DNA of 14,893 nt from a virus. Lineage: Duplodnaviria > Heunggongvirae > Uroviricota > Caudoviricetes. Location: the IMG/VR virus record IMGVR_UViG_2737471841_000009, positions 1 to 14,893 of that record; one strand, given 5' to 3'. The notes under the pieces were generated by a model. That model saw only the letters and a program-made list of their open reading frames with translations. It did no database searches and was not told where the DNA came from. The first letter of the stretch is position 1, and each line of letters starts with the position of its first letter. Below are positions 5,582 through 13,525 of the stretch, piece after piece. Both the position numbers and the translations under genes were made by a program.

Positions 5582-6247
5582 TTATCTCGTCACTTTTCTT
5601 AATTGCGCCTCAGCATATGCTTCTTCCTGCCAGCACTTTGTAACCAGTTTATCAATGACATCTGCATATCCTTTGTACCACTGATAATCTGTCAGGTCTG
5701 GTACCAGCTTCTGGACATGATGCCGCGCCAGTGTGGTTGGTAAACGGCTAAACCGGTTTCCATTGCAACGCCCACAAATCTTATAAACAGGCGTGCCATG
5801 AAGCCGGGTCCTTTTTTCATCCAGGACAATACCTTTACCCTTACACCCTCTGCACGCTGTGCTGACTTCTCCCTTACCATGACAATGCTGACATAGTTCC
5901 TTCAGCAGGCGCTGGTTTATATCGGCGTTCTCTACTTCCTCAATTTCAGGAAGCGATACGAACACCCCACCAGCAGACTGTGCGACAGCATCCGCAATGT
6001 AGTGAGTGCCAGCTGCGCGCTGTAAAACCATTGCCCATCCCAGCGGGAAAATCTGATCGCCATCGGCACGAAGGCGGTTAAATAATGCGCTCTCTGTTAC
6101 ATCCAGCCAGTCAGCAGCTTCAGCGTAACCCCCCGGCAACGCTGCGATAGTTTTTCTGACAGCTTTCACGTACCACTTAGGCTGTTTTTCTACTTTCCAG
6201 TGATGCTTACCCACGGCTATCTCCTTAAAACTGTGGTTACTTTTCAT
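5582..6247 (-). CDS. CII-position regulator (YdaT-like?) with a C-terminal Cys-rich zinc-ribbon
   Basis: ATG at 6247 overlaps the 3' end of the cro-like gene by 11 nt (the ORF track extends to a TTG at 6319). The gene occupies the cII/ydaT slot after cro. C-terminal motifs CQHCHGKGE, CRGCKGKG and CGRCNGNR are DnaJ-like CxxCxGxG repeats. Confidence 0.45.
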   Translation of the reverse strand: MKSNHSFKEIAVGKHHWKVEKQPKWYVKAVRKTIAALPGGYAEAADWLDVTESALFNRLRADGDQIFPLGWAMVLQRAAGTHYIADAVAQSAGGVFVSLPEIEEVENADINQRLLKELCQHCHGKGEVSTACRGCKGKGIVLDEKRTRLHGTPVYKICGRCNGNRFSRLPTTLARHHVQKLVPDLTDYQWYKGYADVIDKLVTKCWQEEAYAEAQLRKVTR

Positions 6248-6485
6248 CTGATGAATCTTTAATCTTTTGAAAAATATCTGGACGTAATTTTTCTTTTGAT
6301 ATGCCAGTGGTCTTTTCAATGAATATCGAGAGCTTTGCAGGGGGACGCTTTTCTCTGTTCAACCAGTTCCAGACATGTTGTTGCTTTACTAAATGACCGC
6401 TGCTGGCTGTGAGCTTCCGAGCCAATTCTGATTGACCACCAGCCAGAGCGATTGCCTCCGATAAGGCTAATTGCTCAGGTGTCAT
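6237..6485 (-). CDS. Cro-like repressor (YdaS / Cro-CI HTH family)
   Basis: 82-aa ORF with ATG at 6485 preceded by AAGGAG. It is transcribed divergently from the CI-like gene across an operator-rich intergenic region. The sequence (QSELARKL...LRPD) resembles the YdaS-type Cro family. Confidence 0.65.
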   Translation of the reverse strand: MTPEQLALSEAIALAGGQSELARKLTASSGHLVKQQHVWNWLNREKRPPAKLSIFIEKTTGISKEKLRPDIFQKIKDSSDEK

Positions 6486-6620
6486 AGCTTTCTCCTTTTT
6501 AGGTAGTTAAGTTGTTACGAGTTGCAAGAATACAACATTAACAACTTTTATCACAACTTTTAGGTGTTGGAAAGCTAAAACATAAAGTTGTAACCTCATC
6601 AAAAAAGAGAGGGATATGTT
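6486..6620. promoter_or_regulatory. OR-like divergent promoter and operator region between cro and cI
   Basis: 135-bp AT-rich intergenic region with repeated half-site-like motifs: AAGTTGT at 6509 and 6585; ACAACTT at 6541 and 6553; AGGTGTT at 6562. The 11-mer CATAAAGTTGT (6581-6591) recurs at OL (8234-8244). Confidence 0.65.
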
Positions 6621-7307
6621 GTGAAAACACTGGCAGAACGATTAAAGATAGGTAGAGAGAAAGCTGGCATGAGCCAAGCTCAACTAGCTGAAAAAATTGG
6701 ACTTTCACAACAATCTGTAGCCAAAATAGAGAATGGCGAAACTCTACAACCGCGCAAAATTAAAGAAATTGCAAAAGTTTTAGGTGTATCACAAAAGTGG
6801 TTACAACTTGGTATTGAAGACAACGCATCCATACCTGATCTTGTTGTAAAAGAAGCAGAAAGCACCGCATTAGACCCCGATATTTTCGTAAACATTCCTG
6901 TTTTAGATGTCGAGTTATCGGCAGGTAACGGATGTCTGGCTGAAATAGTTGAATCAGCTATTGACTGGTTTCCGTTAAGAAGAGCAGATTTGAGAAAATC
7001 TGGCGTATGTGCATCTAATGCCAAGATCGTAAAAATATGGGGGAACAGTTTATTACCGGTTCTCAATAATGGAGATCTTGTTGCCGTTGATATTTCTCAA
7101 ACCGTTCCTATTCGTGATGGCGATCTTTATGCCGTACGAGATGGTGTATTGCTAAGGGTTAAAATACTTATCAACTTACCTGACGGTGGCTTGATTCTTA
7201 GAAGCTTCAACAAAGATGAGTACCCAGATGAAATACTCACCTTTGAAGATAGACGAGCCAGAATTCATGTTATAGGTAGGGTATTCTGGTCATCGCGAAC
7301 TTGGTAA
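6621..7307 (+). CDS. CI-like prophage repressor (XRE-type HTH plus S24 LexA-like autopeptidase domain)
   Basis: GTG start at 6621 preceded by GAGAGGG. N-terminal HTH (MSQAQLAEKIGLSQQSVAKIENGE). An Ala-Gly candidate cleavage site (LSAGNG) and a Ser/Lys dyad (WGNSLLP and LLRVK) are present. Confidence 0.85.
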   Translation: MKTLAERLKIGREKAGMSQAQLAEKIGLSQQSVAKIENGETLQPRKIKEIAKVLGVSQKWLQLGIEDNASIPDLVVKEAESTALDPDIFVNIPVLDVELSAGNGCLAEIVESAIDWFPLRRADLRKSGVCASNAKIVKIWGNSLLPVLNNGDLVAVDISQTVPIRDGDLYAVRDGVLLRVKILINLPDGGLILRSFNKDEYPDEILTFEDRRARIHVIGRVFWSSRTW

Positions 7308-8180
7308 TGCATCGAAAAGCATTTCTTCAGAAATAATTTTAAGTTTTGCACCATTATCATCCCTATAAGATATAGCCTTTTCGATCTTCCTTCCGTGACT
7401 TGAGAATTTCCAATCACGGGAGGAAAGCGTCCCAATTACTAAAAAATCCAACTTTTGAGTAATTCCACTACTGATGTTCCCACCAGCATTTTTAATCAAA
7501 TTTTCAACTACGGCTCTCTTTCCTGCAACAAAAGTGCCTGTAAGACAATAGGTTTTACCCTCTAACTCTATCGAAGCCCCTACATCAATAGGCAGCCTGG
7601 TCGCCAAACCATCCACCACCCCACTTTCCAAGTCACATCCTGTGAAGTCTACTAATGCCTTATGTAGAGTTAAACTCTCATCTTCAGTAATAACACCATC
7701 TTTAAGAATTTCCTTTACAAGTGCATAAAGTTTTTTTCCTGGGTAGTTGTTCTTCAAAGCTCCATTTTGCTCAAGCCACCAATTAAGATATCTTATTTCT
7801 TCTTGAGTTAAGTTCCGATCAGCAATTAATCCTTTACATAGTCCATTAAGTAAATGGACATCTACATCCTTGGAGTAAAAATCAATTTCAGGGATATCAA
7901 GAATTTCCCTCTGTATTTGGAGAAGGCTATTTTTAAGGTCATCACGTTCTTCTGATGTGATTATTCCATCCGCAAGAATATCCGACACCCGTGCTGATAG
8001 ACTTTTTATAACTCCATTATTGATAATCTGCTTTGCTTCAAGTAACCATGTATCTAAGTAAAGAACCTCCTCTTCACGGACAACTCCATCTGCAATGATT
8101 CCATCAATGATGCTAATCAAGTTAGCAAATAACTTGTCCCGGTTCTGTGTGTAATTAAAAGCGTAAAGCGCGTCTTCCAT
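7290..8180 (-). CDS. Moron protein: four tandem ~40-aa repeats plus a C-terminal BRCT domain; candidate exclusion or defence effector
   Basis: ATG at 8180 preceded by AGGAGG (the ORF track extends to a GTG at 8210). Repeats centre on IIADGVVREEEVLYL, ILADGIITSEERDDL, LIADRNLTQEEIRYL and ILKDGVITEDESLTL. The C-terminus (GKTYCLTGTF...LDFLVIGT...KLKIISEEMLFDAL) matches the BRCT fold pattern of LigA-type BRCT domains. Confidence 0.8.
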   Translation of the reverse strand: MEDALYAFNYTQNRDKLFANLISIIDGIIADGVVREEEVLYLDTWLLEAKQIINNGVIKSLSARVSDILADGIITSEERDDLKNSLLQIQREILDIPEIDFYSKDVDVHLLNGLCKGLIADRNLTQEEIRYLNWWLEQNGALKNNYPGKKLYALVKEILKDGVITEDESLTLHKALVDFTGCDLESGVVDGLATRLPIDVGASIELEGKTYCLTGTFVAGKRAVVENLIKNAGGNISSGITQKLDFLVIGTLSSRDWKFSSHGRKIEKAISYRDDNGAKLKIISEEMLFDALPSSR

Positions 8181-8230
8181 ACAACCTCCTTTTTTTGATA
8201 ATCCTTGCACTCCTTGGCTACTCGTTCAAA

Positions 8231-8290
8231 CCACATAAAGTTGTTGACAACATTCAAAACCACAACTAAATTACAACTTAAAGGTGTTAA
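8231..8290 (+). promoter_or_regulatory. OL/PL-like operator and promoter region for the early-left operon
   Basis: -35 TTGACA (8244-8249), 17-bp spacer, -10 TAAATT (8267-8272). Operator-like motifs are shared with OR: CATAAAGTTGT (8234-8244), ACAACT (8262-8267), ACAACTT (8273-8279), AGGTGTT (8282-8288). Confidence 0.55.
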
Positions 8291-8382
8291 AACAACGAAC
8301 AGGCAGGACGCCCACGAAGTAGCCGCCGGTGGCGTATGAATGACCGGATGATTCGTTAAATACTATGTGTAAGAGAGCGCAA

Positions 8383-8586
8383 ATGAACCGTTATTTCACA
8401 TGCTCGTTTTGTGGCGCAAACGAGCTGCAGGCAAAAAAAATCATCGCCAAAGGCGGAAAAGATGAAGTTGCTATCTGCTCTGAGTGCGTAGTCTTGTGTG
8501 TCGGGGCATTAATCAATATCAGCACAACTATTCAGTTCACACCAAATGAGAATGCGCCTTTAGATGCGCGGAAATCTGGAGGTTAA
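8383..8586 (+). CDS. Small ClpX-type C4 zinc-finger protein; first gene of the early-left operon
   Basis: ATG at 8383 preceded by AAGAGAG (the ORF track starts at an upstream ATG at 8365). The motifs CSFCG and ICSECVVLC match the ClpX N-terminal zinc-binding domain pattern (CSFCGK...ICDECV). Confidence 0.6.
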   Translation: MNRYFTCSFCGANELQAKKIIAKGGKDEVAICSECVVLCVGALINISTTIQFTPNENAPLDARKSGG

Positions 8587-8594
8587 AGAACAAA

Positions 8595-8870
8595 ATGAAA
8601 GTCCAGATTTTAAACAATAACTGTGAAGTCGTTTGGTCATACGACATAGCCGCCCCTGTAGATCAGAGCGGCGATAGCTGGACCAATGGGAAACATCAGA
8701 TTATGGCTGGAGTTGTGTTCTCTTTACGCCGTGCTTTGGAACAGGCTGAAGTATTTCCATCAGACCCTGAATGGAAATGGCCTTTTTCTATTTGTCCAAA
8801 TTCGGAGAGCACATTTCAGAAAATTGGTCAGAAAGTCGCACTCGAAGAGCATCAGCCAACTGTTTCCTGA
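8595..8870 (+). CDS. Hypothetical protein (91 aa)
   Basis: ATG at 8595 with GGAGG 12 nt upstream, co-oriented with the PL operon. No recognisable domain. The 3' end overlaps a convergent ORF, so the true end is uncertain. Confidence 0.4.
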   Translation: MKVQILNNNCEVVWSYDIAAPVDQSGDSWTNGKHQIMAGVVFSLRRALEQAEVFPSDPEWKWPFSICPNSESTFQKIGQKVALEEHQPTVS

Positions 8871-9033: not shown

Positions 9034-9129
9034 TTGATTTTCCTTTTATGTATACGGGCTTAAAAGGATACCACCGAGCCTGAAGTGGTGAAAAGACAGG
9101 CACATAACAGCTAAGTATTTTCAACCAAA

Positions 9130-9450
9130 GAGAATCCTTAGCGTTGTGGTGAATGCGGCTCAGCGCACGCGGGTTAAGGTTGAGGCTGACAGTCGACCTT
9201 CTGTGGATACCCACCCGTCTGGTGTGCAACCTTCGCCAGGCACCGGGAGGCACCCGGCACCACAACTTTATGCTGTGTGTAGTCCTGGCGGTACCAGTTT
9301 GTACCCTTGCTTCCGGCTGGTACCGTCCTTTTTACAAAACAGAGAAGAGCATCACCGGACGACGGGCTCATAACCCAATCCATCCGGGCGGCTGCTACCG
9401 CAGGTGTTCTTCTCTGTTTTGTGGAGAAACTAATCGGCCTTGCAGGGTCG
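9130..9450 (+). other. GC-rich, ORF-poor structured segment; candidate structured RNA or cis-regulatory element
   Basis: All frames carry Arg/Pro-rich ORFs with no SD. Perfect 15-bp inverted repeat 9334-9348 / 9408-9422 (ACAAAACAGAGAAGA). An 11-bp stem 9287-9297 / 9317-9327 is followed by CTTTTT. A small hairpin CCGGG-AGGCA-CCCGG lies at 9243-9257. Confidence 0.4.
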
Positions 9451-12045: not shown

Positions 12046-12395
12046 TGGAGCCATACAGCCTCACACTCGATGAGGCCTGTCATTTTCTCAAGATATCCAG
12101 ACCGACTGCCATTAACTGGATACGCACAGGGCGTCTTCAGGCAACACGCAAAGATCCCACTAAGAATAAATCTCCTTACCTCACAACACGACAAGCCTGC
12201 ATTGCGGCTCTTCAGTCTCCGCTGCATACTGTCCAGGTGAGCGCGGGTGATGGCATAACAGAGGAAAGAAAATGTCACTCTTCCGCAGAAGTGAAATATG
12301 GTACGCCAGTTTCACATTGCCGAACGGTAAAAGATTTAAACAGTCTCTTGGAACAAAGGACAAAAGGCAGGCGACAGAGCTCCATGACAAGCTAA
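12045..12395 (+). CDS. xis: Excisionase (P22 Xis-like, 116 aa)
   Basis: ATG at 12045 preceded by AAGAGGTGA. N-terminal HTH ([26 protein letters not shown]). 116 aa matches the P22 Xis length. Sits immediately upstream of int and overlaps it by 124 nt. Confidence 0.7.
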
Positions 12396-13435
12396 AGGCT
12401 GAAGCATGGCGGGTCAGCAAACTTGGTGAAATACCTGATATGACGTTTGAGGAAGCGTGTGTCAGGTGGCTCGAAGAGAAAGCACATAAGAAATCACTGG
12501 ACGATGACAAAAGCCGGATCGGATTCTGGCTTCAACATTTCGCAGGGATGCAACTAAGAGACATCACTGAATCAAAAATTTATTCAGCGATGCAGAAAAT
12601 GACAAACCGGCGTCATGAGGAAAACTGGAAACTCAGGGCAGAAGCATGCAGAAAAAAAGGGAAACCTGTTCCAGAATACACGCCAAAACCAGCGTCCGTT
12701 GCAACGAAGGCTACGCATCTTTCATTTATAAAGGCCCTGCTAAGAGCCGCAGAGCGTGAATGGAAAATGCTGGATAAGGCACCAATTCTTAAAGTGCCTC
12801 AACCGAAGAATAAACGTATCCGCTGGCTGGAGCCTCATGAAGCACAAAGGCTGATTGATGAATGTCCGGAGCCATTAAAGTCTGTTGTTGAATTTGCACT
12901 GGCAACAGGCTTAAGACGCTCGAACATCATCAACCTTGAATGGCAACAAATAGACATGCAGCGCCGGGTGGCATGGATAAACCCGGAAGAGAGTAAATCA
13001 AACCGCGCAATTGGCGTTGCGCTGAATGATACTGCATGTCGCGTATTGAAAAAACAAATCGGGAATCATCACCGTTGGGTATTTGTATACAAGGAAAGCT
13101 GTACCAAACCAGACGGAACGAAAGCGCCAACGGTCAGGAAGATGCGGTATGACGCAAACACAGCCTGGAAAGCGGCGCTGAGACGAGCAGGTATTGATGA
13201 TTTCAGATTTCACGACTTGAGACACACCTGGGCAAGTTGGCTGGTTCAAGCCGGAGTCCCGTTGTCAGTGTTACAGGAAATGGGAGGCTGGGAGTCTATC
13301 GAAATGGTTCGTCGATATGCTCACCTCGCACCTAATCACCTTACCGAACATGCACGGCAAATAGACTCGATCCTGAACCCATCGGTCCCAAATTTGTCCC
13401 AGTCAAAAAATAAGGAAGGTACTAATGATGTGTAA
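12272..13435 (+). CDS. int: Tyrosine-recombinase integrase (P22 Int-like, 387 aa)
   Basis: C-terminal catalytic region [15 protein letters not shown]...VRRYAHL (R/H-x-x-R/Y signature). The gene ends 14 nt from the 3' end of thrW, the known P22 attachment tRNA. Length equals P22 Int. Confidence 0.85.
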
Positions 13436-13470
13436 CTTATTGATTTAAATGGTGCCGATAATAGGAGTCG
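13436..13470. other. Prophage–host junction (att core region) at the 3' end of thrW
   Basis: The interval between the int stop and the 3' part of the tRNA; tRNA-integrating phages carry the core homology over the tRNA 3' end. Exact core limits cannot be set without the other prophage end. Confidence 0.4.
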
Positions 13471-13525
13471 AACCTACGACCTTCGCATTACGAATGCGCT
13501 GCTCTACCAACTGAGCTATATCGGC
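13450..13525 (-). tRNA. thrW: tRNA-Thr (anticodon CGU), 76 nt with encoded CCA
   Basis: Reverse complement reads GCCGATATAGCTCAGTTGGTAGAGCAGCGCATTCGTAATGCGAAGGTCGTAGGTTCGACTCCTATTATCGGCACCA. Acceptor stem GCCGATA/TATCGGC, anticodon loop TTCGTAA, T-loop GGTTCGACTCC. Adjacent to proA as in E. coli. Confidence 0.93.

Follow-up and report, generated by a model that had tools for sequence, protein, structure and literature searches.

Probable CI operators built from 15-bp dyads, and a linked BRCT-domain gene, in the immunity region of a lambdoid Escherichia coli prophage

The window, as we call the whole stretch of 14,893 nt that was analysed, is a lambdoid prophage carried at the tRNA-Thr/proA site, with the integrase gene at 12272–13435, the tRNA at 13453–13525 and proA at the right end. 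Over the 2.5 kb around the putative operators described below, the 15 best-matching complete E. coli genomes are 99.6–99.8% identical to the window, and at least 80% of this 2.5-kb region is present in 47 of 5,426 complete E. coli genomes (about 1%). Among sequenced phage isolates, none has a CI protein more than 45% identical to that of the window.

The order of genes and control regions is cro-like gene (− strand), OR, cI (+), a BRCT-domain gene (−), OL with the PL promoter, and the early-left genes (+). The cro/OR/cI/BRCT/OL order is identical in all loci examined, and the position of the cro-like gene is unchanged in all related loci. That gene (6237–6485, − strand), the first of the early-right operon, encodes a YdaS-family helix-turn-helix protein (Pfam YdaS_toxin, 54.9 bits; PHROG 35, transcriptional repressor). 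It is separated by a 135-nt intergenic region, OR, from the cI-like gene (6621–7307, +), whose product of 228 aa contains HTH_3 (57.5 bits) and Peptidase_S24 (55.4 bits) domains, both above the Pfam cut-offs. The BRCT-domain gene (7290–8180, −; 296 aa) is convergent with cI and overlaps its 3′ end by 18 nt. OL is the 184-nt region between the BRCT gene and the early-left operon, which runs rightward with a ClpX-zinc-finger-like ORF as its first gene and the integrase gene as its last.

Two of the neighboring genes have features of their own. The first ORF of the PL operon (8365/8383–8586, +) encodes 67–73 aa that are essentially one ClpX-type C4 zinc finger (Pfam, 41 bits). Its location beside a LexA-like repressor is notable because, according to the title of a paper, ClpX is reportedly needed to clear cleaved CI repressor when a prophage is induced in S. 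aureus. The second early-right gene, annotated as ymfL (about 5663–6214; ORF 5582–6319, −), is an unusual fusion of two regulator types, with a CII-like N-terminal part (Phage_CP76, phrog_101) and a Q-antiterminator-like C-terminal part (Pfam Antiterm, phrog_127).

The initial annotation had pointed out a three-part block common to OR and OL, together with a second shared word, CATAAAGTTGT. Every one of its coordinates turned out to be right. The block reads ACAACTT-TTATC-ACAACTT-TT-AGGTGTT at OR (6541–6568) and ACAACT-AAATT-ACAACTT-AA-AGGTGTT at OL (8262–8288), and CATAAAGTTGT is found at 6581–6591 and 8234–8244, where the exact common word is the 12-mer ACATAAAGTTGT (6580–6591 and 8233–8244). 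Judged by motif counts against shuffled sequences, the sharing is beyond chance. ACAACTT occurs nine times in the window as opposed to 2.5 expected, a count reached in 0 of 200 shuffles, and six of the nine copies fall within the 2% of the window that is OR and OL intergenic DNA. Similarly, ACAACNNNNNGTTGT with at most one mismatch has six matches in the window against 0.59 expected (0 of 200 shuffles), four of them in OR or OL. A Smith–Waterman local alignment of OR with OL was weakly significant (14 of 2000 shuffles) because the likeness sits in short blocks. With the alignment being marginal, the argument therefore rests on motif counts and conservation.

Conservation was assessed over about 90 related loci representing at least six genera, yielding 45 distinct OR and 50 distinct OL sequences. 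Four of the loci were found through the CI protein (58–71% identical) in species-representative genomes, namely those of Pseudomonas lundensis, Proteus terrae, Providencia rustigianii and Serratia microhaemolytica. A further sample consisted of 80 viral contigs with CI 76–100% identical, and homologs of the BRCT protein led to three extra loci, in Plesiomonas (L089), Salmonella (L090) and Cronobacter. The Proteus and Providencia loci are referred to as L003 and L004. Most of the relatives are closely related Enterobacterales prophages, so that part of the conservation represents shared ancestry.

In alignments of these relatives, the functional unit emerges as a 15-bp dyad, ACAAC-N5-GTTGT, with an A/T-rich center. 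There are two such dyads at OR (C and D) and two at OL (E and G), each with one mismatch to ACAAC-N5-GTTGT. The three-part block, although truly shared, is thus not a unit, since it is composed of an orphan half-site (B at OR, F at OL) followed by a 15-bp dyad (C at OR, G at OL). In the same way, CATAAAGTTGT is shared but does not stand as a motif of its own, being the right two-thirds of dyads D and E.

Dyad C (6553–6567, +; ACAACTTTTAGGTGT) is OR2-like, its center at 6560 lying at about −41 of the predicted PR and −43 of the predicted PRM. It is kept in all relatives, including the Proteus, Providencia, Serratia, Plesiomonas, Salmonella and Cronobacter loci. The OR3-like dyad D (6577–6591, +; AAAACATAAAGTTGT), nearly invariant in relatives, lies within the PRM spacer, with its center at about −19 of PRM and 24 bp from that of C. 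At OL, dyad E (8230–8244, +; ACCACATAAAGTTGT; center 8237) is positioned at about −43 of a candidate BRCT promoter and −42 of PL. It is the same in 47 of the 50 distinct relatives and forms a perfect palindrome, ACAACATAAAGTTGT, in the Proteus and Providencia loci. Dyad G (8273–8287, +; ACAACTTAAAGGTGT) is centered on the predicted PL start. Among distinct relatives it occurs as ACAACTTAAAGGTGT (n = 19) and as ACACCTTAAAGTTGT (n = 19), two oppositely oriented versions of one imperfect dyad. Both the perfect form of dyad E in L003 and L004 and the mirror forms of dyad G argue for true dyad recognition.

Two other ways of parsing the repeats were rejected. Sites of the 434 style, 14 bp long (ACAA-N6-TTGT), are absent, all four dyads being 15 bp, ACAA-N7-TTGT. 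Palindromes of the opposite polarity, GTTGT-N-ACAAC, are not kept as units by relatives and have no conserved spacing: at OL, N is 2 in the window, 4 in L003 and 5 in L004. Outside OR and OL, dyad-like matches are found at 1137 and 9262. The latter site, ACAACTTTATGCTGT (9262–9276, +), has 11 nt in common with dyads D and E on the other strand. It belongs to a conserved GC-rich module (9121–9336), some 1 kb into the early-left operon, for which the sRNA family STnc100 gave a sub-threshold match (39.5 bits, threshold 47). The site may be a chance occurrence or a remote operator.

In addition to the dyads, four conserved half-sites without a dyad partner form direct repeats spaced by 9–12 bp. 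Half-site A (6508–6515, − strand; AAAGTTGT, reading ACAACTTT on the − strand) would cover about +5 to +12 of the predicted PR. In the 45 distinct OR sequences it is at least 95% conserved between variable flanks on both sides and has no conserved palindromic partner. Half-site B, ACAACTT (6541–6547, +), which is the left part of the OR block, is nearly invariant and has no GTTGT-like partner 10 nt downstream, and another conserved orphan ACAAC half-site lies at 6532–6536. On the left of dyad C, half-sites are all that is found, a full OR1-like dyad being absent. The left part of the OL block, half-site F (ACAACT, 8262–8267, +), is directly 5′ of the PL −10; it is kept in most relatives and missing from the Plesiomonas locus. 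Taken as a whole, the OR core (6540–6596) is almost invariant, at least 95% conserved in the 45 distinct sequences; the DNA from the left half-site to the PR −10 and from 6597 to the Shine–Dalgarno sequence is freely variable. OL contains two blocks conserved to at least 95% in the 50 distinct sequences, with a PL spacer of variable sequence between them.

The promoters were mapped with a consensus scan and with sigma-70 weights of our own approximation, and starts were placed by inference 7 nt after each −10. In PL (8244–8272, +), TTGACA (8244–8249) and TAAATT (8267–8272) are separated by 17 nt and the start is predicted at about 8279. It had been described in the initial annotation as a near-consensus promoter overlapping the OL block, and so it is: with 10/12 matching positions it is the sole match of this quality in 6200–8700, its hexamers are conserved (−10 TAAATT or TAGATT in most relatives), and the spacer is 17 nt in 49 of the 50 distinct relatives despite its variable sequence. 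The predicted PR (6527–6556, −) consists of −35 TTGTGA (6556–6551), an 18-nt spacer and −10 TATTCT (6532–6527), with the start at about 6520. It has the best − strand score in OR, its −10 is TATAAT in most relatives, and the scan calls it with 10/12 in the related locus L002. The PR spacer region contains the conserved ACAAC half-sites at 6532–6536 and 6541–6547. Facing the other way, the predicted PRM (6567–6596, +) has −35 TTGGAA/TGGAAA (6567–6573), a spacer of 18/17 nt, −10 TAACCT (6591–6596) and a start at about 6603, some 83 bp from that of PR. A conserved Shine–Dalgarno sequence lies downstream. The PRM −35 is kept in all relatives, and the −10 is TAAAAT in L003 and L004, the scan calling 9/12 in L004. 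In the window itself the consensus scan calls neither PR (8/12) nor PRM (7/12). A promoter on the + strand of OR in the PL register (TTGCAA-18-TTTTAT) was rejected, its −35 not being conserved.

The CI protein has a serine in GNSL, a lysine in RVK and an Ala-Gly pair in LSAGNG. The serine and lysine are invariant in five homologs, four of which retain Ala-Gly, and by analogy with LexA and lambda CI these residues would have catalytic roles. The best solved-structure match of the CI N-terminal domain is the DNA-binding domain of 434 repressor (E = 4e-13, alignment to 1per). Its recognition helix, S/T-QQ-S/A-I/V, is conserved in homologs and begins with QQS as in 434. In 434 repressor, the glutamines of the QQS recognition helix read ACAA half-sites, as established by structural work. 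The ACAAC half-site therefore fits the 434-like helix of this CI.

Heteroimmune phages provide a control. The CI of Stx1 phage SH2026, 41% identical and with the helix SQPAIQK, is encoded among ATAAC-N4-GTTAT dyads, and PL of SH2026 carries GTTATTGAC, the same operator/−35 overlap as GTTGTTGAC in the window. In SfV, GTAC-type repeats precede the leader RNA described below. Heteroimmune relatives thus have other half-sites in the same architecture and places. Moreover, the window is homologous to heteroimmune phages from about 8285–8296 onward, a boundary at the right edge of dyad G, and therefore the OL block belongs to the immunity module. The suggestion in the initial annotation that the shared elements are sites for the CI-like repressor is accordingly favored by several kinds of sequence evidence, namely invariant islands, dyad symmetry, the fit to a 434-like helix and half-sites that differ in heteroimmune relatives.

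On the other side of this boundary, the PL transcript would include a conserved structured leader RNA (8295–8356, +) of about 62 nt, located about 16 nt after the predicted PL start. Its closing stem pairs ACGAACA with UGAUUCGU, two hairpins complete the structure, and compensatory changes are seen in 4 of 15 predicted pairs. The leader is common, at 82–98% identity, to heteroimmune SfV, SfII, SfIV, ST64B, mEp460, ZF40 and others, and on this sequence evidence is a part of the neighboring mosaic module, not of the immunity module. Several of the phages sharing it are without N, cII and cIII (PMC3851460). The leader matched no Rfam family, and its covariance model had no match in the other loci searched; the window has one copy only, with none downstream of PR. 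Another RNA directly downstream of PL is the put antiterminator of HK022, which is about 70 nt long and has two stems. In sequence the leader does not resemble put: blastn revealed no similarity to HK022 20–32 kb and the covariance model had no match in HK022. It is possibly a protein-independent antiterminator or a processing element. Opposite leader stem I there is a terminator-like hairpin with a T-rich tail (8299–8315, −), which could keep leftward read-through out of OL and the BRCT gene.

The BRCT gene starts, as the initial annotation had stated, on the other strand 51 nt to the left of 8231, at an RBS-preceded ATG (8180). Assignment of the domain is upheld both by Pfam (BRCT, 29 bits against a cut-off of 21.3) and by fold comparison. 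An AlphaFold model of moderate confidence (pLDDT 68) consists of helical repeats followed by a BRCT fold, and modeled residues ~205–290 match the BRCT domains of RFC1, XRCC1, ligase and other proteins, with ~85–90 aligned columns in the domain-level matches. A fold search with the N-terminal helical repeats gave no match. The protein matches phrog_3989 (function unknown) over its full length and, in PADLOC, weakly and partially, the candidate system PDC-S48. Homologs number several hundred in Enterobacterales, with a length of ~293 aa. The gene is linked to this cI family, and to cro, in every locus examined; such strict linkage of cI and BRCT across genera is unusual for a gene in the rex position. 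Searching the literature for BRCT genes located within prophage immunity regions returned nothing relevant. The 18-nt convergent overlap with cI (7290–7307) is kept in relatives. Between the two genes there is no convincing terminator, the sole candidate being a weak − strand hairpin inside cI (7258–7235), and therefore each transcript would run antisense into the other gene. This suggests transcriptional interference or Rho-dependent termination.

A candidate promoter for the BRCT gene (8201–8229, −) directly adjoins dyad E. It is composed of −35 TTGAAC (8229–8224), a 17-nt spacer, and TGC + AAGGAT (8209–8201), with a start at about 8194. In relatives, the − strand beside dyad E reads TTGATT or TTGAAC, 17 nt, TG(C/T)AAGGAT; the length is invariant in 50 of 50 and the spacer sequence is variable. 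The element is also present in L003, L004 and L092, and has a spacer of 18 nt in the Salmonella locus. With our approximate sigma-70 weights it is the best − strand score in 50 of 50 distinct OL sequences and ranks within the top 22 of 29,724 positions in the window. Its −10, AAGGAT, is non-canonical and without a T at −12, and the element fails the rules of the consensus scan. In one lineage of viral contigs (15 loci, CI 93% identical), the BRCT gene has an internal deletion (equivalent to ~7400–8150), with both gene ends, dyad E and PL intact. There the promoter-like TGCAAGGAT has become GGCAAGGGT, which is what relaxed selection on a promoter would give. An abutting promoter-like element at invariant spacing is consistent with the earlier expectation that the BRCT promoter must overlap or abut OL and, therefore, coupling of the gene to the immunity switch is plausible.

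We consider it very likely that the repeats are the operators, left and right, of a lambda-like switch in an E. coli prophage, in which a 434-like CI would bind 15-bp dyads. CI binding, transcription starts and the repression or activation of promoters are inferred here from sequence, conservation, symmetry, spacing, protein similarity and linkage. In the proposed switch, the LexA-like CI with its 434-type DNA-binding domain would bind ACAAC-N5-GTTGT dyads. Dyad C, between the divergent PR and PRM, overlaps the PR −35 by four bases and merely touches the PRM −35; CI bound there would turn off PR and allow, or stimulate, PRM activity. At a high repressor level, CI on dyad D would limit PRM. Orphan ACAAC half-sites would occupy the PR core, where lambda has OR1. 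A full OR1-equivalent dyad is absent and, therefore, complete repression of PR is hard to explain. At OL, CI bound to dyad G on the PL start would block the early-left operon. Dyad E, located between PL and the presumably weak divergent BRCT promoter, would repeat the OR plan at OL, such that the BRCT gene would be transcribed in the lysogen with dyad E occupied and possibly be activated by CI.

The sign of the proposed regulation at the BRCT promoter could also be the reverse. CI at dyad E, maybe together with G through cooperativity or an OL–OR loop, would then occlude the −35, and the BRCT gene would be an early lytic gene, turned on along with PL upon induction. Dyad E does directly abut the candidate −35, the two dyads flank a divergent promoter pair, and the coupling proposed in the initial annotation was worded in a way compatible with this sign. 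We nonetheless regard repression as unlikely. The BRCT hexamers lie at +1 to +6 and +24 to +29 from the edge of dyad E, which are exactly the offsets of the PRM hexamers from the edge of dyad C. Since dyad C also covers the PR −35, PRM has to function while C is occupied, and the BRCT promoter should likewise function while E is occupied; thus, transcription of the BRCT gene in the lysogen is the most likely outcome. In lambdoid phages, moreover, the interval between cI and OL holds lysogen-expressed accessory genes, such as lambda rexAB, 933W stk and 434 hex. Finally, the BRCT gene has been lost without loss of cI, OL or PL. Geometry therefore suggests that BRCT expression is CI-compatible, possibly CI-activated, and belongs to the lysogen.

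The likeness to rexAB, stk and hex includes the same map position and dispensability for lysogeny, the BRCT gene being internally deleted in one lineage. On the other hand, the BRCT gene is encoded on the opposite strand, pointing away from PL and towards cI, and it is tied to one cI family across genera instead of being swapped within one immunity type.

A separate question is which protein reads the repeats. Rather than CI, the YdaS-type Cro or the CII/Q-like YmfL might be the main reader of the repeats or of the orphan half-sites, four of which are conserved as unpartnered direct repeats 9–12 bp apart. We think this quite improbable, since ACAA is what a QQS helix reads in 434 and the full dyads are placed at points of CI action (the PL start, the PR −35 and the PRM spacer). 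In addition, lambdoid Cro and CI share operators, so that reading by Cro would complement CI binding. The YdaS-type Cro could be the reader of some repeats. In the characterized CP-933P switch of E. coli O157:H7 (PaaR2/YdaS/YdaT), footprints of the YdaS-type Cro overlap those of PaaR2, which is CI-like, on mixed direct and inverted repeats (PMC8630535), and by this analogy CI and the YdaS-type Cro likely share the repeats described here.

It is extremely improbable that OR and OL resemble each other only through common promoter sequence or an old duplication and do not act as operators: the OL block does overlap the PL −10 and start, and the single OR–OL local alignment is only weakly significant, but the OR block is not on a conserved + strand promoter in the PL register (the would-be −35, TTGCAA, is unconserved), and dyad symmetry, the orientation flip of G and a half-site changing with the repressor helix are not expected of promoter elements.

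The operator reading preferred here, with CI on 15-bp dyads, places the locus close to several well-known switches. As in lambda, divergent lytic and maintenance promoters start ~83 bp apart, with one operator in the middle, ~41–43 bp from either start, and another at about −19 within the PRM spacer, the operator centers being 24 bp apart. A second operator set is located ~1.7 kb away at PL, and the repressor is a LexA-like S24 protein. The positions of dyads C and D are those of lambda OR2 and OR3. Unlike lambda, there are two full dyads per region, not three, with orphan half-sites in place of OR1; the dyads are 15 bp instead of 17 bp; Cro is of the YdaS family; PRM has a leader with a Shine–Dalgarno sequence, whereas in lambda it is leaderless; and there is a second, candidate PRM-like promoter at OL.

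With 434 the locus has in common a half-site that begins with ACAA, dyads that each have one perfect and one imperfect half, and the QQS start of the helix. It differs in having ACAA-N7-TTGT with an invariant fifth base C (14-bp ACAA-N6-TTGT in 434), AK at helix residues 32–33 (EQ in 434), and low identity outside the N-terminal domain. The analogy thus covers the choice of half-site and not the geometry of the dimer, the dyad being one base longer (N7 versus N6). The repressor/operator pair would work like that of 434 but, judged by the 14-bp operator, is not a member of the 434 immunity group.

CP-933P is likewise a lambdoid switch with a YdaS-type Cro, mixed direct and inverted repeats at OR and OL, and accessory genes that adjoin the repressor locus and share its expression (PMC8630535). 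However, its operator consensus is of the GTTTAGTAA type, in 18-bp palindromes, and paaA2-parE2 are co-transcribed with the repressor (PMC8630535), whereas the BRCT gene is convergent and has its own candidate promoter. The immunity specificity proposed here is new, of a well-known lambdoid kind, and the duplicated OR-like layout at OL, which would serve the conserved BRCT gene, is modestly unusual.

One further idea, which we put forward tentatively and with low confidence, is that the BRCT gene, rather than being a swappable moron, is an integral third component of immunity, convergent and overlapping with cI, with a PRM-like, CI-activated promoter at OL and co-inheritance with cI across Enterobacterales. 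BRCT proteins bind DNA ends or phosphopeptides. If the gene were integral to the immunity module, its product would keep other phages out of the lysogen or adjust how readily the LexA-like repressor is induced. Separately, and just as tentatively, the structured leader after PL, found also in N-less lambdoid phages, could be a new protein-independent antiterminator.

By sequence alone, a probable operator code, ACAAC-N5-GTTGT, and a probable promoter map are defined for an uncharacterized immunity type, which also occurs in related prophages of Serratia, Citrobacter, Klebsiella, Salmonella, Proteus, Providencia and Plesiomonas. Set beside 434, the system is a natural case for comparing how half-sites spaced one base differently are accommodated. 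With a candidate PRM-like promoter at OL, the BRCT gene may have a lysogen function that depends on the repressor, a specific and testable possibility.
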